From Perkinsus olseni (lineage: Eukaryota), in the NCBI GenBank assembly GCA_013115125.1, contig JABANN010000001.1, positions 62,001-126,000 of the forward strand: a stretch of 64,000 bases of DNA, given 5' to 3'. Below the pieces are notes generated by a model that worked only from the letters and a program-made list of their open reading frames with translations, was not told where the DNA came from and did not search any database. Within the stretch, counting starts at the first letter, position 1. The number at the start of each line of letters is the position of its first letter. A program made the position numbers and the translations under genes. Below are positions 3,008-56,876 of the stretch, piece by piece.

Positions 3008-3270
3008 AGCTAACACATGCGTTGCGCCACCTTCAACCTTGGAAGCCCGTGGTTGTACACCAGATCTGTACGACGGCGACACAATGACTGTCCCCTCTAT
3101 CATAGCTCTACCTCTCCATTCAGACATCCCTGTCGAATGAAGGCGGCACACAATAGGGGGACACTGAGTTCAAAGCCTCCTAGGGCATCCCAACTCGGAC
3201 CGTAGAAGCACTATAGAAACAGGAACGTGTACGTAAATACGTTGATGCCGATGCATCGCTGAGTAGACGA

Positions 3271-6200
3271 CTACAGCTTGACCCGCTTGCTGCCACCGGC
3301 CGCCGTCGCATCGCTCCGCCCCTCTTTTCGTTTGGCTTCCGAACGTCGTACGTCTCGACCAGCCGAGTCCGCAGCAGCAGCCATCAACGCAGTGGTGCGG
3401 ATCTTACGAGGAGCCCTGATGAATACAGCACCGTCAAGTCGGAAGCCTCACTTCACGGAGTCACGACGTCACTGTTGTACGAGTCCACTCCCATTGCAAG
3501 GGACGCCATACCTATCATTAGTGGGGCCTTCCTTTCTGGCTTTCCGCTCCGCCTTCTCCTTCTTGTTCTTCTCAATCAACTTCGCCTCCCGAGCCCTCCT
3601 GTCCCCAACAGTGACGTTACCTGAGACGGCTGTAGTAATCATCACGCATCAGTCACATCAGTAGTACCCTTCTCGATGGACTCCTTCGCCTTCTGTCGTC
3701 GCTTAGCCTTCCTGTTGCCACGCACTGCTGCCTTCTCCTCACCTGTCATCTCCTCTCTCACCTTCTGCTTCTCCGGGCCCTTAGTGACCTAAAGATCCCC
3801 ATTCTTAGCGGAGCGAAGCAACTACCCTTCCCGTATTCATCACCTCATTTCCTTCGGTACCACCAGCAGCCACAGTAATAGGTACCGCCTCTTCCATGCG
3901 AATAGCCGGTGCATCACCATCCCTAGCAGCCTTCGACAGGGCCGAATCCAACACCTGACACATGCCGGCCAACTCCCATCCGCACCAGCAGTCGCCCCGT
4001 CAGTACCGGTCGAGGCGTGAAGTTCTGGTTAGTGAGAGTATCCAGCTTGTGCATGAGTTTGCCGAAGAGCTTCCTCAGCTCCACTCTATCGGCATCCTGC
4101 TGGAGCTCCGCATCAGTCTGCTGGCCCAGCATCTGATCACCACCAGCCCCCCCATCAGTGACCCCTCCATCAGCCCTCGTCGCGGTACCTCAGTCTCATA
4201 CTGCTTAGCATAGACATCGGCCAGGCCTAGGCGGGACTTCTGGAAGTTTAGGGTCTCCACGGAGTCGTCCCCCTGCTGGCTGTCCTTTAACCGCATCACC
4301 TACGCCAACCTCGTGAGCTCAGAGTGGCAGAGAGGGAGCCTCACCTCCTCCTCGCTGCGCTTGATAACGTCGTCGTAGGTCTCGTCGGCAACCCTCTGCC
4401 TGATGATCGCATCTACGTCAATCTTGAATGCCCCGGGTGCGGCTTGGGTGAGCTCATCCTCATCCTCTTCTGAAAAAACCAAGCACACTGTCCCCCGATA
4501 CCAAACCTCCGCCAGATCAGAGCCGAGTGGCACCCATAGGCGTATCGGAGGCCCCTTCCAACATTCCCAGCGCACAGTCTGCGCGCCACCGGCAGCATTA
4601 CTACCTCCCTCCTCCCACTGCTTCTCAGCCCTCCTGGCTGCCAGCTTCGAGAAGGGTAGGTCAATATGCTGCTCCAAGAGAGAGTTCAAGGGACGACTGC
4701 TGCCTGTCGCCTCGCCTGTCATCGTCCAATGCTTCTCCTGAACCATCGCCATCCCCTCCTGGAAGTAACCGCTATCCCCCGCTTACATCCAACTGCTCCC
4801 GCTCCATCTCCTCTATTTCGTTCTCCATATCAGCAATCCTCTTCTTCAACGCTGACGTCTCGGAGCGTCTCGAGTCCTCGGCCACAGAAGGCCCCCCCTG
4901 CTCCTTCTCTTCGCCGGCGAAGGCCTGTTTAGCCTCTGAGCATGAAGGTGTGCAAGTGGATGGGCGGGCGCCCAAGGCAAAACATACGCGGCATGGGTTC
5001 TTCGAGTCAGTCCTCTCCCCATGTATTACCATCCTCACTCTCTTCTTCTTCCTCCTCTTCCCCAAGGTCTCCTTGCATTTCCTTCAACTGCTGCTCGAGG
5101 GCTGCTTCCTCCTCGTCCTCAAGGTTCTCTCCTTCAGGGAAGCCCAGGCCTCCTTCTGCCTCTTCCTCATCCTCTCCCTCATCATCATCACTAGACCCTT
5201 CTACCTCACCATCACGCGGCCTACCGAACACTACCCTGTTAAAACTCTACAAAACAGCCCTTTACTTGACGACGGCGGCCTCCTCTCCCTCCTCTGGAGC
5301 ATCAAAGAAGTCGCTGTACATGAGCTTATCGACATCTACATCTTCAGAATCTGATCGCCTCAGGCTCAGGAAGAAGCGCCGAGCGGTAGCTAGCCCACCG
5401 TCATCCCCTATGGGTTTCTCAAGATCCATGAACTCATCGTCTTCTCCCCAATCCTCGTCCTCATCATCCTCATCCTCATCCCCCGCCTTCTTCCCGGCCT
5501 GAGTAATCGCAGCCCATCGGAGCGATCGTCACGCGCTACGAAACTACCTTATGCCGAGCTGCTATCTCAGCATCCTTCTTATCTTCCATCTCGAGGAAGT
5601 CGTTCATGTCAGAAAGTTTGAAGAGGCCCTCGTCGACCGCCGAAGATTTCGGACCTGCCCGTACCGTTTGGTTCCCTCGGCGTCCTGCACAATGATCAAT
5701 GACCGGGAGGCGATAGGATTTTCACGGCGCCACTTGTGAAATTCGCGGATACCAAAGCACGCCTTGGGTGAGATGCACCTAGCCTTCAGTGCTTCCCGAA
5801 CTAGTACCCTTCTCGCCACCCTCAGCTGGCTCTTGTTCTCCCTCCCCCTCCTCATCCTCTTGATCAGATGCCAAAGCGGAACTGGCCTCGCTCGCCATGT
5901 CAACATCCTCTTCGTTCTCACTCGCCGTGCTGAGACAGGTATCCGTTAATTTGCGCGTGTGTGCCCATACCACTCCTTCCGCAACTCCCCGACCGCCTAC
6001 TACCTTGCATCGCTGACTTCACCAGCCTCAGCATCAGGCAGGAGCTGTATGCCGTCGGCACCGTTCAGCTTCTCCAAGAACCTAACGGTATCGCCTCCCC
6101 TCACCCGTGTACCCCAATCCCCTACTTCATCTTTTTCTTGAGTATTTTCTCTAAGGGCTTCTGTTGGTTGTCTATCTCCTGCCATATCTGGTCCAAGTCC

Positions 6201-8168: not shown

Positions 8169-9584
8169 ATGTCAAGTTCTTCCTCCAGCAAACCCTCAAG
8201 TGAATTTACTGACAGCAGCACTGATGAACTAGAGCTATCATCTTCGTCATGCTCCGAGTTCTCGGAAGTTGACGGTAAGAACGAAGGGAAGGCCGACGGA
8301 ACTCCCGACTTCACCGCCATCTTCAACGTTGTCATGACCGCTGTCGGTGTGGGTATGCTGGCGCTGTCCAAAGCCACGGCTAGTGTGGGGTATCTACCAG
8401 GCATCATCCTACTACTCGTCTGTGCCGTAGTAGGCTGGATAATGGTATACCTCCTGTACAGATGCCGTGTGATGGCTCTGCATTTGGGTATGGAGTATGT
8501 CCCGGCTTACGAGGAGCTCGGAGAGGCCGCTTTCGGTAAAGTTGGTAAGACGATCGTTGCGATCTGTCTACACATCTCTCTTATTGGAACCTCATGCGTC
8601 CTCATCCTCCTACTCGGCCAAAATTCCTACCATATCTATGACGGCATCTCGGTCACGTGGTGGGTTATCATTTGGACTGTCATTCTCCTGCCTGTAAACT
8701 GGCTCAAGACCATGCGCGAAATTGGTTATGTCTCCAGCACTATCGGTGTTGCATCCATTATCGTGTCCGTTATTGGTCTCTCTGTCGCCGGTTTCGTCCA
8801 GGCCGCTGATAACAATGGTGATGTCGACTACGAAATAGGTGTACCGCAACCACTCACCATCATCGGTGCTTACACCACGTTTTCTTTTTCCTTCTCAGTC
8901 ACATGTGGCACGACTACTGTAGTCCACGATATGCGTAATCCAACTCATGCTCCTAAGGTTTTCTTTTTTGCTTTCGCTACGCTTGTTGTTGTCTATGCTG
9001 TCGTGACCTGTGCTGCTTACCTTGGCTGGGGCCAAGGCCTTCTTTGCTATGATAACGTCTTAGATGCTATGCGAAAAGATGTATGGGGATACATATCTTT
9101 CGTTAGTATTGTCGTACTATGTGCTACGCACTATGCTGTTTTGCTGCACCCATCCTGCAGGGCCATCGAGGTCCTTGCTGGTTTGGAAGACGGCTCGCCA
9201 AGGGCTCAGAAGTGGGGGAAATGGCCCACTTTAGTTGCCACTTGCTGTCTACGCAGCCTTCTTGTTGTTATCACCGCGGTCATTGCGATCACGGTGCCCA
9301 ACTTTTCACTGCTGGTTGATTATCTATCGGCTGTTACCTACACGCTGGTCCATCTCATCTTCCCTCCTCTATTTTACATGAGATTGAGGTACTTGATGTC
9401 TCGTAGTTATGAGAACAAGGAGTTGGCCAAGGCTGAAGGGAACTTTGGCTCAAAGCGAGCAACAATGAGGAGTCTTTCATTGATCTTCCTCATGCTCGTG
9501 GCGCTGCTCGGATCGGCATTAACCCTCTACAAGACGGTTGATCCACCAGCAACGCCCGAAGAGTGCTCCCTGCTCTCGTTATAA
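8169..9584 (+). CDS. Amino acid/auxin permease (AAAP, Aa_trans) family transporter, intronless
   Basis: 471-aa ORF with about 11 hydrophobic segments. TM1 AIFNVVMTAVGVGMLAL, YEELGEAAFGKVG, HDMRNP, AYLGWG, IFPPLFY. Confidence 0.92.
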   Translation: MSSSSSSKPSSEFTDSSTDELELSSSSCSEFSEVDGKNEGKADGTPDFTAIFNVVMTAVGVGMLALSKATASVGYLPGIILLLVCAVVGWIMVYLLYRCRVMALHLGMEYVPAYEELGEAAFGKVGKTIVAICLHISLIGTSCVLILLLGQNSYHIYDGISVTWWVIIWTVILLPVNWLKTMREIGYVSSTIGVASIIVSVIGLSVAGFVQAADNNGDVDYEIGVPQPLTIIGAYTTFSFSFSVTCGTTTVVHDMRNPTHAPKVFFFAFATLVVVYAVVTCAAYLGWGQGLLCYDNVLDAMRKDVWGYISFVSIVVLCATHYAVLLHPSCRAIEVLAGLEDGSPRAQKWGKWPTLVATCCLRSLLVVITAVIAITVPNFSLLVDYLSAVTYTLVHLIFPPLFYMRLRYLMSRSYENKELAKAEGNFGSKRATMRSLSLIFLMLVALLGSALTLYKTVDPPATPEECSLLSL

Positions 9585-10570
9585 AGAGCAGGTAAGAGCA
9601 GCTCATGCTTTTTGAGTCCATTTATAGGTTATCATTCCTATCCCTTTCGTTACATTAGCCAACGCCCCGTGAATTCGGGACTGCAGTGCTTCTAGTAGCG
9701 CCAACTTCTTCTTATATCGGAACTTGCACGTGAGCATGACGACCGGTCGTGCACTTAGCTGATGTCCTTCCATCAGTCTCTTGGTCATGCTAGTTGACTA
9801 AGAGCTGTTGGTTGACGTGTTTCTTTTAGCACGCGCTTGTACAGATATCCCTCCTTGGCTACCATTGAGAGGAGTCCAATGCTAACAGTTCCTGTCGGTT
9901 GATGACAATTAACTAAGTCAGTGCTTTATATTAGTGTTTACGGCAGAAGTATCTGTGTCGTCAAGCGGTTGCTGGCATCCAGTGGAAGAGCACGATCTTG
10001 TGCAGCTGCATCTTCGACTGCGACGCAGGGCCGTTGAGCGCACCAGGGACTCCTGCGTCACTTTGCGTTTCGTCCCCATCCTTTATTGTGGTTCATCGTA
10101 TAGCAGTCCATCATCCCCCTAAAGGGTAGTTGCTGCTATGGTCCCCTGTTATCTTGGGGGAGTGCTCTCTAGGCTGGTGGTCCCATCGGGAGACATAGCT
10201 TGCTCAGGCCTCGTTGGTATCCAGGGCTCATGCCGCGTTCTCTGTCATATTCGCTCATTGTTCGCGGAGAGTCTATGGCCGGCCAGGCCGTTTACCAGAC
10301 GGTTTATATTGTTTCTGTTTCCCGATTGAGGTTGCCATCCTATCAGCAGGCTTTCCGTGGGTGGTTGTATATCGTATAGCATTCGTCTCCGTTCAACGAC
10401 GTTTCTTTTTGAGTTCAACAACGGGCACGGCTGTCGAGGGGTTTCTAGGCGAGTTGCATGCTGAGTTCATCCTCACTCGTGGTTTCGTGAACGAGGTGCC
10501 GGCATTGGAGATCGTGTCGTTGGCGATAGTTCTCTATGATCTTTAGCACTGTTTCTATCTCCTTCCCGTC

Positions 10571-11971
10571 ATGTCCTGGTCTCCAAGCAGATCCGTTGAC
10601 ACGTCATCCTCTAGCTCTACTACCGAGAAGCCCGTGTCGTCATCATCCTCGTCTTCCGGCGAGCTCTCCGAGAAGCTCTCTGGTGAAGAGGTGAGGGTAG
10701 ACGGCACTCCGGATTTTATGGCCGTCTTCAACGTTGTCATGACTGCTGGTGGGGAAGGTATGCTGGCCTTGACTAGAGCCACGGCCAGTGTAGGATATCT
10801 ACCAGCCCTCATCCTCCTCATCGTCTGTGGCGCTATAGGATGGCTTATGGTATACCTCCTGTACAGATGCCGTGTGATGGCCCAGCATATGGGTAGGGAG
10901 TTTGTCTTGGCCTATGAGGACCTGGGAGAGGCCGCTTTCGGTAAAGTTGGGAGGACAGTTGTTGCTGTCTGTCTGCACATCTCTCTCATCGGGACCTGTT
11001 GCATCGTCATCCTCCTGCTCGGCCAGAACTCCTACCATATTTACGATGGCATCTCAGTCACGTGGTGGGTTATCATTTGGGCGGTCATCCTCCTGCCTCT
11101 CAACTGGCTGAAGACCATGCGAGAAATTGGCTACGTCTCCAACACCTTCGGTGTTGCTTCTGTTCTCATGTCCGTTATCGGTCTTTCCGTCGGCGGTTTC
11201 GTCCAGGCCGCCAAGAATTACGGGAATGTAGACTACGAGCTGGGCGTCACGCAGCCACTTACCATCTTCGCTGCGTACACTACGTTTTCGTTCGCTTATG
11301 CTGTGACATGCGGGTCCACTACTGTAGTCCACGACATGCGTACCCCCACTCACGCTCCCAAGGTTTTCTTCTACGCTTTCGCTACGATCATTATCCAGTT
11401 GGGCGTGGTGACTGCCGCTGCTTACCTAGGTTGGGGCCAGAGCCTTCTTTGCTACGGAAATGTTCTGGATGCTATGCAGAAGAACGTATGGGGATACATC
11501 TCCTTTGTGAGTATCCTTGGGTTGTGTGCTACGCACTATGCTCTCCTGCTGCATCCATCCTGCAGGGCCATCGAGGTCCTTGCTGGTTTGGAAGACGGCT
11601 CGCCGAGAGCTGTAAGGTGGGGAAAATGGCCCACTTTAGTTGCCACTTGCTGTCTACGCAGCCTTCTCGTTGTTATCACCGCGGTCATTACGATAGCAGT
11701 GCCAAACTTTACACTGCAGGTTGATTATCTATCGGCTGTTACCTACACGCTGATTCATCTTGTGTTTCCCCCTCTATTCTATATGAGACTGAGGTACTTG
11801 ATGTCTCGTAGTTATGAGGCCAAGGCTGAAGGCAACTTCGGCTCAAAGCGAGCAACAATGAGGAGTCTGGCCCTGATCTTCCTCATGCTCGTGGCGTTGG
11901 TTGGAGCGGTATGGACTTTGTACCAGACCATCAACCCTGCACCAGCGCCCGAGGAGTGCTCGCTGCTCTAG
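10571..11971 (+). CDS. AAAP family amino acid transporter, tandem paralog, intronless
   Basis: 466-aa ORF collinear with and highly similar to 8169..9584. Confidence 0.92.
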   Translation: MSWSPSRSVDTSSSSSTTEKPVSSSSSSSGELSEKLSGEEVRVDGTPDFMAVFNVVMTAGGEGMLALTRATASVGYLPALILLIVCGAIGWLMVYLLYRCRVMAQHMGREFVLAYEDLGEAAFGKVGRTVVAVCLHISLIGTCCIVILLLGQNSYHIYDGISVTWWVIIWAVILLPLNWLKTMREIGYVSNTFGVASVLMSVIGLSVGGFVQAAKNYGNVDYELGVTQPLTIFAAYTTFSFAYAVTCGSTTVVHDMRTPTHAPKVFFYAFATIIIQLGVVTAAAYLGWGQSLLCYGNVLDAMQKNVWGYISFVSILGLCATHYALLLHPSCRAIEVLAGLEDGSPRAVRWGKWPTLVATCCLRSLLVVITAVITIAVPNFTLQVDYLSAVTYTLIHLVFPPLFYMRLRYLMSRSYEAKAEGNFGSKRATMRSLALIFLMLVALVGAVWTLYQTINPAPAPEECSLL

Positions 11972-19300: not shown

Positions 19301-19878
19301 CCACGGATAGACCCGCGGACGAGGGACTCCCGTATTACGAAGATACTGTATTGCCGTTGTCCTGACTGTGTCCTTCTCAGGTTTGACCTCTGCTGTGTGC
19401 TACATGCACGCTGGTGATTGGCGAGGGGCTGCTCGAGTCATCGACCGCGAGGTAGGCCGACCCAGGTCGTGTTGCGGCTTGCACGCATGCCCTTGTGTTG
19501 TCAGTTACTGAGCGCTCTCGAAGATGTCATCCTCGGTGGTGATGCTGTGCACAGTTGGATGAGTTCGATGATAGAAAGACTGGCGTTCCTGGCCAGCGGC
19601 GGCACCAGCGGCATCGCCGACCCGACCAAGGACTGGATACACTTTGCCAACGCTGTAGCTTAGAAGCACTTGTAACGCGTCCCAGAGTAGCGTTGCCGTG
19701 CAGGTCATGCATGACGATGTTCTTACCTCGAGCTTCCTGGCCAAGTGCAAGGCTAGTAACAACCTCGGTGAGGAGAAGGAGGCACTCCTGCGGGAAGCGT
19801 GAGTGTGCTCCCGACTGGTGGTCTGATGACGATCGAAATGGTGTTGTCAGGGCTTCCAAGTACTCCAGTAGCTCTTAG
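16311..19878 (+). CDS. Nup96-like scaffold nucleoporin, multi-exon
   Basis: Pieces GYPRLARI, LRQQLAQWK...VYQLLAG, SWTANFAAYYCYG and TAQWLETIGLWPWAAL resemble the Nup96 helical domain pattern. Confidence 0.55.
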
Positions 19879-19973
19879 CAACAACGTGTACCCGTTTCAA
19901 CGTCAATCGCTGAGTCGTTGCTTGAGTTGTTTAATACATCTGTAGGGGGTCCACCAGCCAGTGTTTTTGACCC

Positions 19974-21557: not shown

Positions 21558-23154
21558 TCACATCTCTTCATCAGACGACCTGGCCCCACTCTCGGTGGGT
21601 GAGGGCTTCTTGCCCGGTAGCCTCTCATAGTCGCCACGAACACTATCATCATCACGTGTAGGAATCTCCTCGTCGACATCGAGTTCGTCCAGCTCATCCA
21701 GGCCCTCCATATCAATCACTTCCACCCCTGAGGCGACCCTCACTTTTGCGGTCGGTTCCGCAGCAGGAGTCTTCATCCTTTCGCAGATGGCTGCGGTAGG
21801 ACCAGGCTCAACAGTCTTATAGATGGTGACGCCCGAGGCCACCAAAGCGATGACCATGAGCAGCAACAGCGAGCCGGTCAGGAGCTTTCCTTTAATAGTA
21901 CCCAAGTTGCCTGGTCTAGCACGACCAGCTGACTTGTGCTTCAATCGCATGTAAAATAGGGGCGGAAATATGTATAATGGGGGTAAAATAGGGGGGTAAA
22001 TGTATAAGCGTATACGTAACGGCCGAAAGCAGATCTATTTGCAGTGAGAAATTGGGTACTGTTATGGCAATCACGGCGGTGACGACCACAAGCAGGCTCC
22101 GTAGGCCACTAGTGATAATGAGAGTCGGCCAGCGCCCGAGCTTACGTGCCTTGACGGTGCCGTCCTCGAGGCCAGTGAGATACTCTATAGCGCGGCAGGA
22201 CGGGTGCAATAGGACCGCATAGTGGGTTGCCGAGAGCATGATGATGCCAACAAAAGATACGTATCCAAAAGCGTCTTTGGACATCGCTTCAAGCACATTG
22301 TCATAGCACAGAAGCTTCTGCCCCCAACCCAGATATCCAGCCAGAGTTACCAAGCCATAGATGAAGATGAGGCACGCGAAGGAGATGGCAAATACCTTCG
22401 GGGCGTGGGTGGGCTTGCGCATATCATGAGTAACCGTCGTCGTGCTACAAGTGACGGAGTAGGCGAAAGAGAAGGTCGTGTACCCTCCTATGAGTGACAA
22501 GGGCCTGTTCACGAGCGCCTCGTAGGGCGCATGGGGGCTAGCAGTAAATGCCTTGGATAAGCCGGCAGCCGTGAGTCCTACCAGGGTAAGGAGGATCGAG
22601 AAGACCCCCACAGTGCTGGACATGTATCCGATCTCTCGCATCGTCTTGAGCCAGTTGATAGGCATGAGGATGACGGTCCATATGATAACCCAGATATCAA
22701 CACCAATGCCGTCATAAATGTGGTACGAGTTTTGCCCTAGCAGAAGCATAAGGACACAGGACGTACCAATGAGGGAAATGTGGAGGCAGATGGCGACAAT
22801 AGTGCGGCCTACTTTCCCGAACGCAGCACGACCGAGGTCTTCATAGGTGGGGACGTGCTCGAGGCCGAGAGTCAGGGCCATCACTCGGCACTTATACAGT
22901 AGGTAGACCATAAACCACCCAATAGTGCCACACCCGAGCATAAAAATGATGCCGGGCACGTAGCCGACACTCGCCGTGGCCTTGGAGAGGGCGAGCAGGC
23001 CAACTCCAACAGCGGTCATAACCACATTGAAGACGGCAGTGAAGTCAGGCGTGCCGCCTACTTTAACACTCTTTCGACTCTGCTGGGACTCGAGACTTTT
23101 TACAGATGATATCGAGCTCACAGAGCCCCGGGAACGACGACGATTGGGCGCCAT
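21558..23154 (-). pseudogene. Third AAAP transporter paralog, frameshifted near 21951-22008 (pseudogene or assembly error)
   Basis: ORF 21916..23154 is collinear with the other two paralogs up to AVTYTLIHL. The conserved FPPLFYMRL and the last TM helix continue in another frame (ORF 21558..21950). Confidence 0.7.
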
Positions 23155-23375
23155 GAAGACGCGAGCTCAGGCGTGAAGAGCTTCCCAACTCAACTTGGAA
23201 GAGAAGTACTGACTACAGTTACTGTAGTACAGTATTTCCACTCCTTGCTGCAGTCCAGATAAACTCCGTGGCCCAGCCCTCTTCGCCATGCGTGATCTCT
23301 ATCGAAACTCACTATCAACTCGACGCAACAGGGCGGGTAGTTATGAAACTCGACAGAATGAACTACGCATCTAGA

Positions 23376-45370: not shown

Positions 45371-45719
45371 ATGGTAATAAGGGTCATCGCTTGTAGGCCT
45401 CTCGCTGCCCTCTGTCATCGTACACGGGTGTAGCATTGGTATCATGCTAGTCCGTGGACCGACTTCCCGTGTGCGTATTTCCTAGTCGATTTCACCGTCG
45501 TCAATGTTTCAGGGTTCCATCAAGTCCTTCAAGACTAAGAGAACTTTGGGCAAGAAGATCAAGCAGAATCGCCCTCTGCCCCAGTGGTTCCGTATGAGGA
45601 CCAACAACACCATCAGGTATTACTCAACCCCCAGCGTTCCTTAGCAGTAATGACTATCGTCTCGTTGTAGGTACAACGCTAAGCGTCGTCACTGGAGGCG
45701 CACTAAGATCGGTATCTAA
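45371..45719 (+). CDS. RPL39: 60S ribosomal protein L39 (eL39), 3 exons
   Basis: ATG(45371-45373) | intron 45374-45512 | [35 protein letters not shown] | intron 45617-45670 | [15 protein letters not shown]. Absent from the ORF track because it is short and spliced. Confidence 0.96.
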
Positions 45720-45999
45720 GTATGGGTCCTTGGTAGTAGCAATACTACCGACTGGCTATCACCTCAAGTACGACTCCCCACTGGTGGGGCCTTGCTGATT
45801 ACTGCTGGACGCCGACTTCACAGTGTGTTGAGTTGAGTAGCCAATTAAGGGTATTTTACGCGTACTTACGCAGGTGGTTGACTTGTCGGATAGTCATATC
45901 ATCTAAGTAGTCCGCAACAGCAGCCATAGAGTCTTTACTCACCGGCTGCCTCTACTCGTGAGGTGGCCGGCCTTTCACGCTCACACATCTACCAGTGCT

Positions 46000-46186
46000 G
46001 CTGCCTGTGATNNNNNNNNNNNNNNNNNNNNNNNNNNNNNNNNNNNNNNNNNNNNNNNNNNNNNNNNNNNNNNNNNNNNNNNNNNNNNNNNNNNNNNNNN
46101 NNNNNNNTGATGACTAACTGTGAAGGTCTCGTTCGTCTGACAAAGACATGGAGAATCAATCACAACCACCCATAGCCTGAGGCAGC
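46000..46186 (+). ncRNA. Box C/D snoRNA 1 (two 18S rRNA guides), spans the assembly gap
   Basis: C box TGATGA 46108-46113, D' CTGA 46137-46140, D CTGA 46177-46180. Guides AAGGTCTCGTTCGT (antisense to 18S ACGAACGAGACCTT) and ACCACCCATAG (antisense to 18S CTATGGGTGGT). Terminal stem GCTGCC (46000-46005, before the gap) / GGCAGC (46181-46186). Confidence 0.88.
46012..46107. other. Assembly gap (N run)
   Basis: 96 N bases. Confidence 1.
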
Positions 46187-46205
46187 TCTTTTCTGAATGG
46201 CGACT

Positions 46206-46290
46206 GAGCCGAGGATGACTAACTGTGAAGGTCTCGTTCGTCTGACAAAGACATGGAGAATCAATCACAACCACCCATAGCCTGAGGCTC
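46206..46290 (+). ncRNA. Box C/D snoRNA 2 (tandem copy of snoRNA 1)
   Basis: Body identical to copy 1; C box variant AGGATGA; D CTGA 46282-46285; a different terminal stem GAGCC/GGCTC. Confidence 0.85.
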
Positions 46291-46299
46291 TCAACGATA

Positions 46300-46379
46300 A
46301 GGTTGATGATGAGCAAATGTTTATGGAATCTCGTTAACCTGAGTTCAAGTGAAGACCTAAATCAACTTGGCTGAAACTT
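46300..46379 (+). ncRNA. Box C/D snoRNA 3 (LSU rRNA guide)
   Basis: C ATGATGA 46306-46312, D' CTGA 46339-46342, C' GTGAAGA 46349-46355, D CTGA 46371-46374. Guide GGAATCTCGTTAA is antisense to conserved 25/28S TTAACGAGATTCC. Stem AGGTT/AACTT. Confidence 0.9.
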
Positions 46380-46388
46380 GTATGCAAA

Positions 46389-46467
46389 AAGGGATGATGA
46401 CACCATACCTCACTGGAGGCTCCACGGGAGTCGCTGAACAGTCTTACCAAGATCTGCACTGATCCTT
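46389..46467 (+). ncRNA. Box C/D snoRNA 4 (LSU rRNA guide)
   Basis: C ATGATGA 46394-46400, D CTGA 46459-46462. Guide ACCAAGATCTGCA is antisense to 25/28S TGCAGATCTTGGT. Stem AAGGG/TCCTT. Confidence 0.88.
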
Positions 46468-46483
46468 ACAATTGATTGATGTT

Positions 46484-46573
46484 TAGCATGATGTCACCGG
46501 TACGAATCTGGAGACGGCTGCTGCTGCAGTAGTCGCCGCTGAACAGTTCCACTACCAAGATCTGCACTGATTA
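46484..46573 (+). ncRNA. Box C/D snoRNA 5 (diverged paralog of snoRNA 4)
   Basis: C variant ATGATGT 46488-46494, D CTGA 46567-46570. Guide ACTACCAAGATCTGCA. Shares GCTGAACAGT with snoRNA 4 but has a different internal hairpin. Confidence 0.75.
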
Positions 46574-46718
46574 TTAACCCGGGAGCAGGAACGGCATGGC
46601 GAAACAATGGTCCTTTCTTATTACTATTGTCTGTTGCGTCTTTAGATTTTCAATTGGTTCGCTTGGGGGTGCAGCTAGTTGAGCGGTTGTGATCAGGTTG
46701 ACTACTGTCTGCTGCATG

Positions 46719-47669
46719 TCCATGCCACCGCGATATGGCACTGACTCGAATCCCTCGAGGGAGTCCAGAGCGACACTAGCCGCGGAAGTACGGGCTTTAC
46801 GGGAAGAGTTACGGCAGGTCAAGCGAGGCGCCCCACCCCCTCCTCCGCTACGACCGTTACGCGAGTCGGCTGAGCATCCACTCTCGAGTACGCCATGGTG
46901 GAGGCGATCGCGGGAAAGGCATGATTGCTCTGGGGAGAGGGACGACTCCTACTCGCCAGAGAGGGTCTCAGAGGGCCCCACCAAGGCTCGGGCAGAGGAG
47001 CCAGCAACGCCTGTCTTGGTTGCCACGCCCAAGTCCCTCAAGGGCGCAGCACCGAGCGAGAAGGCAGTCCCAGCCGCCAGTCCGGTGACGAGGCCGGGTA
47101 GCTTGCCTTCGACAACACTGCCCAAGCTGATGCCGTCTGAGTGGGGCGAGATGAGAAGCACGCGGCCGGTGTGGATGGCCGCTCCTCCTCCTGCTGCTGA
47201 TGCTACCCGATACCAGTCCCCGGATCGATCGAGGGGGACGGCGGTATTAGAAGGAAGGCTGATGGAGCTGGACGAAGGTGCTGCGGCTGGCGGGCTCATA
47301 ATAACGGTTCTGATCTGCTTGTTCGCCCCTTTCAGAGGTCCGAGCGCTACGGCTGGAGAACGCATCACTCCGGGCGGAGTTGGAGATACTTCGTCGAACC
47401 TCTCCTGCTCGGGGTCGATCGGGAGGAGGCTGCCCTCCGGAGCATCATCCTCGGCCACTCTCTCGAGGCAGGAGCGCCTCTCGGACCCGAAGGCACCAGT
47501 GTGTCTCTCCACGGCTGAGGTAGGGGTGCCTGCCCGCCCGATCCCGACCTCCGATACTGGTAGGTCCCGCACACCCCCACCGCCTGAGGGACATACGCAA
47601 ACGTCTTGGCAGCGCTTCCAGTGTGCCCAACGAGCGAAGGCTAAACGGCGGAGCGCTACTCGTTTATAG
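46719..47669 (+). CDS. Hypothetical Pro/Ser/Arg-rich protein
   Basis: 326-aa ORF (46689..47669), low complexity, short N-terminal coiled coil (LAAEVRALREELRQV); may contain a small intron. Confidence 0.5.
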   Translation, partial: SMPPRYGTDSNPSRESRATLAAEVRALREELRQVKRGAPPPPPLRPLRESAEHPLSSTPWWRRSRERHDCSGERDDSYSPERVSEGPTKARAEEPATPVLVATPKSLKGAAPSEKAVPAASPVTRPGSLPSTTLPKLMPSEWGEMRSTRPVWMAAPPPAADATRYQSPDRSRGTAVLEGRLMELDEGAAAGGLIITVLICLFAPFRGPSATAGERITPGGVGDTSSNLSCSGSIGRRLPSGASSSATLSRQERLSDPKAPVCLSTAEVGVPARPIPTSDTGRSRTPPPPEGHTQTSWQRFQCAQRAKAKRRSATRL

Positions 47670-47852: not shown

Positions 47853-49262
47853 ATGCCGCGGAAGTTTTCGTCGGTGCCGCTGCCGCCAGAGAGAAGGGAC
47901 TCGGAGTACTGCCATGGCTCGGCCAACCCTCGGACGCATTGCCGTATTGCCAAGTGCAATGGAGGCCGTTCTTATTACGCCTACTTCGAACCTAAAGACA
48001 GCGGTCAGTTCGAGTGCGTCCTCGGCCCTCTGCGCCCTTCCTTCGATGATGCTTCGAGGGATGCCTCGCGGATGGTAGCGGCAGCAGCAGCGTCCGAGAG
48101 AGAGCTGGTCGGATTGGTTATGAAGTTGATGATGCAGGAGGGAGCCATCGTTCACCGGAAGGCCCCGCCCAAGAGCCGGCCCGGGATGATGCTCGAGTCG
48201 CCCTACATCCGAGTTGACGTCCCCGGCCGATCAGGCGGCGAAGAGACCGTTACTGTGGCCCTCAGGGGTATTCGCTTCAACACAGTCGAGTGCGATGTTC
48301 CGGTGGCCAGGGAAGTGGAGGTCAGGTTGAACCATACTAAGATGGGCCGAGTCATAGACTGTATTGTTGAGCTCTTCGCGAAGTGCGCGGATGAGAACAT
48401 TCAGCGCCCTGATGACCACACAGTGTACCGGTTCGTCCGTGACACGCTGGGCTGTCGTCTTCCGCTGCCTGAGGGGGACGTAATGCGCCTCATAGCAGCT
48501 ATGGCGGACTCGTTCCCCAACGCCGGGGTGGCTGCGGAGACTCCTGAGTGGCTTCACGCCTTCAAGGAGAAGTCCAAGAAAGTGGACGCTCACGTGGCCG
48601 AGGTAGTAAGGAGCTGTGAATCGGAGCGCCGGAAAAGGGAGAAGCGCAAGCTGGAGGGCACGGCGGAAGCTGCCGGCAAGCGGCCTCGGAAGCACACACC
48701 CGCTGATCGCACCGTCTTCGTTTCGAATATTGACCGTGGGACTGGCCTCGGTGAGCTCCGGGATGCCGTCAATGGGTGGATGGGGGAGAAGGGCGTCGAC
48801 CGGTGCGCTATCCCGGTCGAGCACCAAACCGGCGCTGTCAGAGGCCACGCCTTCCTCTACTTCAAATCATCAGAAGCCGCCGATAGATTCGTCGATAGAT
48901 CCTCGCGGGAGGAGTTCGTGGTCAAGGGTCGGGTACTACGCACAGCGAAGGTTTTGGAGGAGAATCTTGAAGGCGAGGAGCTCCAAGCATGGCTAGCCGA
49001 TCAGAAGAAACAGATGTTCCGATTGCCGTCGGAAGTGGAAGCGGCCATCAGATCCAAGGTAGCCGAGGATGACGGCTGCAACATCTCTCTTGTGAAGCAC
49101 AAAGTCGAGACTGAGTTGGGCCATCCGGTCGACTTAGCAAAGTATGGGTTCAAGTCTTGGTCCAAGGCTGTGAGGTCGGTGCCTGGAGTGTCGATCGAGG
49201 TCGTTCACAATGAGGAGAAGGAGGGCAAGTTGAGTGGCTATGTGGCACGGCTGGATACTTGA
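47853..49262 (+). CDS. RNA-binding protein with RRM and C-terminal LOTUS/OST-HTH-like domain, intronless
   Basis: RNP2 TVFVSNI and RNP1 RGHAFLYF; C-terminal CNISLVKHKVETELGHPVDLAKYGFKSWSKAVRSVPGV resembles LOTUS; basic NLS-like KRPRK. Confidence 0.75.
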   Translation: MPRKFSSVPLPPERRDSEYCHGSANPRTHCRIAKCNGGRSYYAYFEPKDSGQFECVLGPLRPSFDDASRDASRMVAAAAASERELVGLVMKLMMQEGAIVHRKAPPKSRPGMMLESPYIRVDVPGRSGGEETVTVALRGIRFNTVECDVPVAREVEVRLNHTKMGRVIDCIVELFAKCADENIQRPDDHTVYRFVRDTLGCRLPLPEGDVMRLIAAMADSFPNAGVAAETPEWLHAFKEKSKKVDAHVAEVVRSCESERRKREKRKLEGTAEAAGKRPRKHTPADRTVFVSNIDRGTGLGELRDAVNGWMGEKGVDRCAIPVEHQTGAVRGHAFLYFKSSEAADRFVDRSSREEFVVKGRVLRTAKVLEENLEGEELQAWLADQKKQMFRLPSEVEAAIRSKVAEDDGCNISLVKHKVETELGHPVDLAKYGFKSWSKAVRSVPGVSIEVVHNEEKEGKLSGYVARLDT

Positions 49263-56797: not shown

Positions 56798-56876
56798 ACC
56801 AAATAATGATTTGAGCAGTGATGTTGCTCGCACACACCATCTGCGAGCAACATCACTGCTCAAATCATTATTTGGT
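56798..56876. repeat. Perfect 35-bp inverted repeat with a 9-nt loop
   Basis: ACCAAATAATGATTTGAGCAGTGATGTTGCTCGCA (56798-56832) - CACACCATC - TGCGAGCAACATCACTGCTCAAATCATTATTTGGT (56842-56876). Confidence 0.97.

Follow-up and report, generated by a model that had tools for sequence, protein, structure and literature searches.

A probable cluster of box C/D methylation-guide snoRNA genes directly behind RPL39 in Perkinsus olseni

Polycistronic clusters made up of genes for small nucleolar RNAs (snoRNAs) are found in yeast, trypanosomatids and Euglena, and those of trypanosomatids sit within polycistronic units. In plants as well, clustered snoRNAs are made as one precursor transcript that is then processed to the individual snoRNAs (PMC8053127). 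The closest precedent for the locus described here comes from Plasmodium, where ribosomal-protein genes, and other genes too, are followed at a distance of 367-629 nt by snoRNA genes: PFS8, PFS9 and PFS13 downstream of RPL7a, and PFS11 and PFS12 downstream of RPL5 (PMC2656528). Reverse transcription PCR (RT-PCR) and expressed sequence tags have placed PFS9/PVS9 in the 3' untranslated region (UTR) of RPL7a, and PFS11 and PFS12 are co-transcribed (PMC2656528). For perkinsids and dinoflagellates, no published description of snoRNA genes was found in a literature search that was judged by titles and the opening lines of abstracts and that left most subscription journals outside its coverage. The subject of this report is a cluster of box C/D units located immediately downstream of the ribosomal-protein gene RPL39, in a 64,000-nt stretch of Perkinsus olseni DNA (assembly GCA_013115125.1, contig JABANN010000001.1, positions 62,001 to 126,000 of the forward strand; hereafter ‘the window’, within which all coordinates are given). 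With a probability of roughly 0.9, these units are considered to be genuine box C/D methylation-guide snoRNA genes.

Five units of the same sense occupy the plus strand from 46001 to approximately 46575, beginning 281 nt after the RPL39 stop codon (Table 1). Four of the five are complete, and the first (unit A) is interrupted by a run of 96 N at 46012-46107. Box D reads CTGA in every unit and is found 60-100 nt from box C, the arrangement that defines the C/D class, and the units measure 79-92 nt. Box C is canonical in the visible part of unit A and in units C and D, and carries one departure outside the GA core in units B (AGGATGA) and E (ATGATGT). Terminal stems of 5 bp enclose units A (across the N run), B, C and D, and a stem of about 3 bp encloses unit E. 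The spacers, from A through E, are 20, 9, 9 and approximately 19 nt in length; same-strand units with spacers too short to hold separate promoters are what characterize a polycistronic cluster.

An initial annotation of the window had proposed five box C/D units at this position, separated by roughly 10-20 nt and mostly furnished with their own terminal stems. The location, strand and proximity to RPL39 (the last through a Pfam Ribosomal_L39 match), the spacers and the stems are all borne out by the boxes and coordinates described above. The count of five stands for the units that can be read, and is left uncertain by the N run. The left flank of that run contains the stem strand CTGCC, a single nucleotide and the opening six letters of a C box, which is the geometry of unit B; from a GAT in that flank to the GAT at the head of a 75-nt block common to units A and B, the distance is exactly 100 nt, as compared to an A-to-B period of 105 nt. 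Because the left flank thus starts a unit 100 nt ahead, against the 105-nt period, the run either interrupts a single unit or conceals an additional Z43-like copy, and there are possibly six units. The run falls at the boundary of the 75-nt block, and its two flanks fit a repeat-induced assembly gap as well as one hidden extra copy.

When set beside Plasmodium, the Perkinsus locus offers the same juxtaposition, in a myzozoan, of C/D snoRNAs a few hundred nucleotides past a ribosomal-protein stop codon (367-629 nt there, 281 nt here), but the Plasmodium genes are mostly single-copy and PFS11 and PFS12 are separated by about 290 bp, whereas the Perkinsus cluster contains five or six units, some of them duplicated, with spacers of 9-20 nt. 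In its same-sense genes, its duplicated variants and a spacing too close for individual promoters it resembles the clusters of plants, yeast, trypanosomatids and Euglena, although its spacers fall at the very short end of what is seen in those systems. The statement in the initial annotation that little has been described in this lineage agrees with the literature search; the Plasmodium precedent (PMC2656528) had been overlooked in it.

The concentration of units within so short a segment exceeds chance. A looser scan for C/D elements had given 16 matches across the window, and was replaced by a strict scan with shuffled controls, in which the GA core of the C box had to be intact, CTGA had to follow 60-100 nt downstream and a stem of 4 bp or more had to flank the two. 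The strict scan identified four units on the plus strand of the 64-kb window, units B, C and D among them, and four on the minus strand. Across 100 dinucleotide shuffles of the sequence, not one displayed three units within 600 nt; the maximum was two, reached in 11 shuffles. Unit E passes the scan only when the stem requirement is relaxed to at least 3 bp, and unit A could not be scored owing to its N run.

Relationships between the units are visible in their alignment. Units A and B are 100% identical over 75 nt, and differ in their terminal stems by two compensatory pairs (CTGCC/GGCAG versus GAGCC/GGCTC). Between units D and E, conservation is complete in the 3' block, which begins with GCTGAACAGT and takes in the D guide and box D; box C is conserved in part, and the remainder differs. 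The 5' halves of these last two units are unusual, in that the 12-13 nt after box C are not the same in D as in E and precede a common CTGGAG, a hairpin or loop, and the common GCTGAACAGT. The latter includes a CTGA, and the candidate D' box in both units is either CTGG or that CTGA.

Four guides with matched targets would form duplexes of 14, 11, 13 and 13 bp with ribosomal RNA (rRNA); the C/D class calls for antisense elements of at least 10 nt whose ends stand 1-2 nt ahead of box D or D'. Under the established ‘+5 rule’, the rRNA nucleotide that faces the fifth position of the guide, counted upstream of box D or D', is the one predicted to carry a 2'-O-methyl group (written below as Am, Um or Gm). 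For units A and B, that rule predicts Am in 18S ACGA-A-CGAG from the D' guide and Um in 18S CUA-U-GGG from the D guide. The complements of both guides, separated by a gap of 40-65 nt, were searched as a single pattern across 596 Gb of genome contigs, in which about 0.03 occurrences would be expected by chance (our own arithmetic), and 11 contigs were matched. All 11 matches fall within the Rfam family SSU_rRNA_eukarya on the sense strand, with a gap of 52 nt in ten and 55 nt in one, so that the paired elements correspond to segments of real eukaryotic 18S rRNA. In the three loci for which site positions are available, the two predicted nucleotides are 64 nt apart (L010 and L011) or 67 nt apart (L009). 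The Arabidopsis 18S nucleotides U1266 and A1330, both assigned to SnoR32/Z43 and both methylated (U1266 with a MethScore of approximately 0.97), are likewise 64 nt apart (PMC8053127), a spacing equal to that in L010 and L011; the adenosine corresponds to human 18S Am1383, which is also methylated (PMC3511168).

A further comparison, in which all 649 CTGA sites of the window were set against 19 rRNA segments (with locus L002 left out), returned matches to ten loci for each of the four sites in units A and B, a control that is circular for those units since the loci had been selected with their guides. The CTGA sites at 695 (plus), 23398 (plus), 49273 (minus) and 31884 (minus) matched one locus each and were taken as chance. 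The contigs themselves (L001-L011) are filed as bacterial or archaeal genomes and metagenome-assembled genomes (MAGs); their content is eukaryotic ribosomal DNA (rDNA), with small-subunit (SSU), 5.8S and large-subunit (LSU) genes identified by Rfam, and they represent eukaryotic contamination of those assemblies, four of them derived from a single Hyphomicrobiales MAG.

Units C, D and E carry guides that correspond to LSU rRNA. The D' guide of unit C predicts Am in LSU UUA-A-CG, and the 13-nt D guide common to units D and E predicts Gm in LSU GCA-G-AUC. The unit C target lies in a forward primer for Lolium 25S rRNA (PMC3656029); the D/E guide is contained in KL3, a reverse primer for the 28S rRNA of the apicomplexan Sarcocystis (PMC11682628), and a forward primer for human 28S rRNA includes the complement of that guide (PMC13043311). 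In Arabidopsis 25S rRNA, U30 is the snoRNA assigned to A2322 and U24 the one assigned to G1460, each site with a MethScore of at least 0.98 (PMC8053127), and all four of the predicted sites thus correspond to positions that are methylated in Arabidopsis. The four rRNA complementarities quoted in the initial annotation all sit directly 5' of a D or D' box, and its identification of the genes agrees with the 18S test, the LSU primers and the sub-threshold Rfam matches described below. Its three predicted methylation sites follow from the +5 rule; the fourth, the Am in 18S ACGA-A-CGAG, was missing from it.

Comparison with known snoRNA families gives three different answers for the three kinds of unit. 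Units A and B are close to Z43/SnoR32 (RF00330), with both antisense elements of that family in the same order: a D' guide for 18S A1330 (formerly numbered A1327) and a D guide for U1266. Unit B scores 34.1 bits against the snoZ43 model in an alignment that covers it from end to end (E-value 5.4e-5 in a 1.2-kb segment and 0.0029 in the whole window, where it is one of only two Rfam matches at E <= 1), without reaching the gathering score of 43; both guide blocks are conserved in that alignment, D' before D. Unit A reaches 21.3 bits against the same model, with N in its stem. The likeness to Z43/SnoR32 is not complete: the central part of unit B is approximately 19 nt shorter than that of the model (16 versus 35 nt), its box C reads AGGAUGA, and its host is an alveolate rather than a plant. 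The D' and D boxes of unit B are both CTGA.

Unit C may be compared with U30 (Arabidopsis AtU30, RF01283, and human SNORD30, RF00088, joined in clan CL00052); the unit predicts methylation of the same LSU adenosine, Arabidopsis A2322 (formerly A2311), the human equivalent of which is Am3804. Unit C differs from U30 in having a second, 15-nt D guide. It matches snoU30 RF01283 at only 18.8 bits (the cut-off is 45), and what it has in common with that model is AAUCUCGUUAA-CUGA, that is, the guide and the D' box; outside the guide, its best Rfam alignment is to SNORD53_SNORD92, at 23.7 bits. To judge from the guide and the D' box, unit C is likely to be functionally equivalent to U30.

Units D and E would pair with the same LSU segment as the D' guide of U24 (RF00069), a snoRNA of yeast, plants and humans. 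In yeast and Arabidopsis, that guide places the +5 position on an adenosine, and the adjacent guanosine is reached through a non-canonical +6 position, with both yeast G1450 or Arabidopsis G1460 and the A that precedes it being methylated (PMC8053127). The guide of units D and E, by contrast, precedes box D, and a shift of one nucleotide brings its +5 position onto the G. An assignment to U24, which calls for a D' guide whose +5 position falls on yeast A1449 and for a D guide directed at yeast C1437, was considered and rejected: no Rfam U24 match was obtained for either unit at E <= 10, and no guide for the C1437 target was seen in them. These two units may best be described as working on the target helix of U24 without being U24.

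The sequence of events that these features suggest, in which expression, methylation and processing are what we infer, can be outlined as follows. The kink-turn roles of the box nucleotides and the nuclease pathway that releases individual snoRNAs are both established for C/D RNAs, which are stable RNAs the length of one unit, bound by fibrillarin, Nop56/58 and Snu13. In Perkinsus, the units would most likely be cut from one precursor by endonuclease cleavage and exonuclease trimming (the expectation of a common precursor follows from spacers of 9-20 nt that leave no room for separate promoters), and each would be trimmed to an RNA of approximately 75-90 nt. A terminal stem of 3-5 bp would then join boxes C and D to form a kink-turn, on which a fibrillarin methyltransferase complex would assemble, and an antisense element of 11-14 nt just 5' of D or D' would pair with rRNA so that the nucleotide opposite the fifth guide position is 2'-O-methylated. 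Units A and B (at least two identical copies) would thereby generate the 18S Am and Um that correspond to Arabidopsis A1330 and U1266, unit C the LSU Am that corresponds to Arabidopsis A2322, and units D and E the LSU Gm that corresponds to Arabidopsis G1460 and yeast G1450.

Table 1. Coordinates of the box C/D units and of the features around them (window positions).
Feature	Position	Strand	Elements
RPL39 gene	45371-45719	+	exons ATG 45371-45373, 45513-45617, 45671-45719; stop TAA 45717-45719
RPL39 stop to unit A	45720-46000	+	281 nt
Unit A, Z43/SnoR32-like	46001-46185	+	stem CTGCC 46001-46005 / GGCAG 46181-46185; C box TGATGA 46108-46113; 18S guide 46123-46136, D' 46137-46140; 18S guide 46165-46175, D 46177-46180
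Unit B, Z43/SnoR32-like	46206-46290	+	stem GAGCC/GGCTC; C box AGGATGA 46212-46218; D' guide 46228-46241, D' 46242-46245; C'-like ATGGAGA 46253-46259; D guide 46270-46280, D 46282-46285
Unit C, U30-like	46300-46379	+	stem AGGTT/AACTT; box C GATGATGA 46305-46312; LSU guide 46325-46337, D' 46339-46342; C' GTGAAGA 46349-46355; D guide 46356-46370, D 46371-46374
Unit D	46389-46467	+	stem AAGGG/TCCTT; C box ATGATGA 46394-46400; 12-nt guide, then CTGG 46413-46416; internal hairpin 46418-46432; GCTGAACAGT 46433-46442; LSU guide 46446-46458, D 46459-46462
Unit E, diverged paralog of D	about 46484-46575	+	C box ATGATGT 46488-46494; 13-nt guide, then CTGG 46508-46511; GCTGAACAGT 46538-46547; LSU guide as in D 46554-46566, D 46567-46570; stem about 3 bp
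Pyrimidine-rich tract ending in AG	about 46608-46645 (within 46608-46718)	+	resembles RPL39 intron acceptors

The question of where such a precursor would start must be considered in light of the genes on either side. RPL39 is a real gene: its second exon contains the Pfam Ribosomal_L39 match (E 2.7e-11), its third is translated for 15 residues before the stop codon, and its introns, as read from the sequence, have GT...AG borders. The 281 nt that separate it from unit A are either its 3' UTR or a promoter region. Their predicted fold has an energy of -102 kcal/mol (z-score -2.04). Two hairpins stand out within the segment, one with a perfect 9-bp stem just 3' of the RPL39 stop codon (approximately 45730-45750) and one with a perfect 11-bp stem and a 7-nt loop about 30 nt 5' of unit A (approximately 45941-45969), and both could act as signals for processing or for termination. 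The segment 45700-46000 gave no Rfam match at E <= 10, and the presence of an H/ACA snoRNA or of an additional C/D unit in the gap was considered and rejected (the gap lacks a C box, and no internal pocket is present in the 11-bp hairpin). Immediately 3' of the TAA stop codon, the sequence GTATGG (within 45717-45725) resembles a 5' splice site.

On the other side of the cluster, the next open reading frame (ORF) of the plus strand extends over 46716-47669, with its first ATG at 46716, about 145 nt after the cluster, so that RPL39, the snoRNA units and this ORF are all encoded on the same strand. Approximately 40-75 nt past unit E, and some 70 nt short of that ATG, lies the acceptor-like tract listed in Table 1; it is a possible cis-splicing or spliced-leader acceptor of the downstream gene, as judged from its letters. 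Another plus-strand ORF at 47853-49262 displays weak Pfam matches of the RRM_1, OST-HTH/LOTUS and RDR6-RBD-like types, all under their cut-offs, and the two ORFs possibly belong to one gene for an RNA-binding protein.

Several routes to a common precursor can be entertained. One tentative proposal is that the cluster is co-transcribed with RPL39 and that the snoRNAs are released from its 3' UTR or from read-through RNA, in the manner of PFS9 behind RPL7a; if so, the output of a ribosomal protein and that of snoRNAs would be coupled. In its favor are the common strand, the distance of only 281 nt past the stop codon with neither an ORF nor a unit in between, and the precedent in a fellow myzozoan, Plasmodium, of PFS9/PVS9 in the RPL7a 3' UTR (PMC2656528). 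The same study, however, also found by RT-PCR that PFS11 is not linked to its upstream gene (PMC2656528), which indicates that proximity does not predict linkage, and the 281 nt could equally accommodate an RPL39 poly(A) site followed by a promoter. That last point leads directly to a second proposal, to be held with comparable caution, in which the units make up a polycistronic gene of their own, independent of RPL39 and transcribed from a promoter within the 281-nt gap, as in plants and yeast, and their adjacency to RPL39 reflects only genome compaction. Plant clusters are indeed made as a precursor (PMC8053127), and a single upstream start is needed in any case given that spacers of 9-20 nt leave no room for internal promoters; the tightness of the intergenic space, which amounts to 281 nt ahead of the cluster and to about 145 nt between it and the following ATG, argues against it.

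Two further proposals extend the transcript into the downstream gene. In the first, which appears doubtful, the snoRNA array would be excised from RNA that joins RPL39 to the next gene, between the RPL39 poly(A) site and the AG at approximately 46645, so that two mRNAs, one of them for the ribosomal protein, would arise together with five or six guides from one RNA polymerase II (Pol II) transcript. If that were true, it would be the first evidence of trypanosome-style co-processing of mRNA and snoRNA in the perkinsid/dinoflagellate lineage, and would suggest that the snoRNAs linked to ribosomal-protein genes in Plasmodium are an ancestral myzozoan trait. In the second, which must be regarded as unlikely, the cluster would sit in RNA that is thrown away during processing of the downstream gene, either an outron (the stretch upstream of a spliced-leader acceptor) or the inter-cistronic RNA of a trypanosomatid-like longer Pol II unit (RPL39, snoRNAs, next gene); a variant places it in an intron of the RPL39 3' UTR, because a GT directly follows the stop codon (TAA and then GTATGG). 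Perkinsus does use spliced-leader trans-splicing (PMC3101222), the three elements share the plus strand, and an acceptor-like tract is present between unit E and the ATG at 46716; with GTATGG at one end of the cluster and that tract at the other, a 3' UTR intron or a spliced-leader acceptor is a possibility. The proposal nevertheless draws purely on resemblance between short sequences, and the word ‘polycistronic’ is absent from the available text of the trans-splicing report (PMC3101222).

A number of observations weigh against the identification of the cluster as a set of genuine snoRNA genes. At Rfam gathering thresholds the whole window yields no match, and units D and E yield none even at E <= 10. 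Box C is non-canonical in units B and E, and the terminal stem of E is weak. The minimum free energy (MFE) folds of the units are no better than those of shuffled sequences (z-scores of -0.73 for B, +0.22 for D and -0.53 for E), as is usual for C/D RNAs. No convincing target in SSU, 5.8S or partial LSU rRNA or among sequence strings from the literature was found for three guides, namely the one before box D in unit C and those on the D' side in units D and E. Their best duplexes, of 8-11 bp, mostly contained at least one G-U pair or occurred at a single locus and were rejected as targets (the background of the duplex scoring, estimated with random 20-mers, is broad and extends up to a score of 15), and literature strings that matched these guides were unrelated primers only. 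The 18S loci had been chosen with the guide complements, and therefore demonstrate that those complements are 18S segments, not that these guides pair better than others would. Finally, the proposed LSU pairing rests on primer sequences of other organisms; the rDNA contigs that were fetched span LSU model positions 1-1438 and 3024-3401 only, and both LSU targets fall outside them. That some or all of the units are decaying duplicates (pseudogenes) or chance look-alikes that yield no functional RNA, as the variant C boxes of B and E, the weak stem of E, the sub-threshold Rfam scores and the target-less second guides might suggest, is very improbable in view of exact antisense matches of 11-14 nt correctly placed at D or D' for four conserved sites, the compensatory pairs by which the stems of A and B differ, the boxes and guide that D and E have selectively conserved, and a clustering that no shuffle attained.

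Elsewhere in the window, two additional candidates for small RNAs were rejected. A C/D-like element at 19823-19913 (plus strand; CTGATGA...CTGA with a flanking stem) has no guide complementary to the available rRNA and overlaps ORFs of about 110 codons, and is probably a chance occurrence; a mir-15 match at 56800-56874 (minus strand) scored 29.9 bits against a cut-off of 57.3 (E 0.0024) and is most likely a chance hairpin. No transfer RNA gene was found in the window by ARAGORN. Three intron-less ORFs at 8169-9584 (plus), 10547-11971 (plus) and 21916-23166 (minus) encode amino-acid transporters of the Pfam family Aa_trans (E 2.3e-48 to 9.6e-42); they form a local paralog group with relatives in Perkinsus at 56 to 94% identity, and named relatives of the first, from Perkinsus marinus and P. 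olseni, are 91-94% identical to it, in keeping with the origin of the window.

The RPL39-linked cluster is of an ordinary kind, and the general understanding of box C/D snoRNAs is unchanged by it. For the Perkinsozoa, a lineage at the base of the dinoflagellates, it provides a first concrete and testable snoRNA locus, with four predicted methylation sites. It extends the dual-guide snoRNA Z43/SnoR32 beyond plants; a comparative table published in 2012 lists that snoRNA for Arabidopsis, with a human counterpart at the level of the site only (PMC3511168). Units D and E represent a predicted canonical guide devoted to an LSU Gm for which yeast and Arabidopsis depend solely on the non-canonical +6 position of U24. 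And, after Plasmodium, the cluster is a second myzozoan example of snoRNAs positioned just behind a ribosomal-protein gene.

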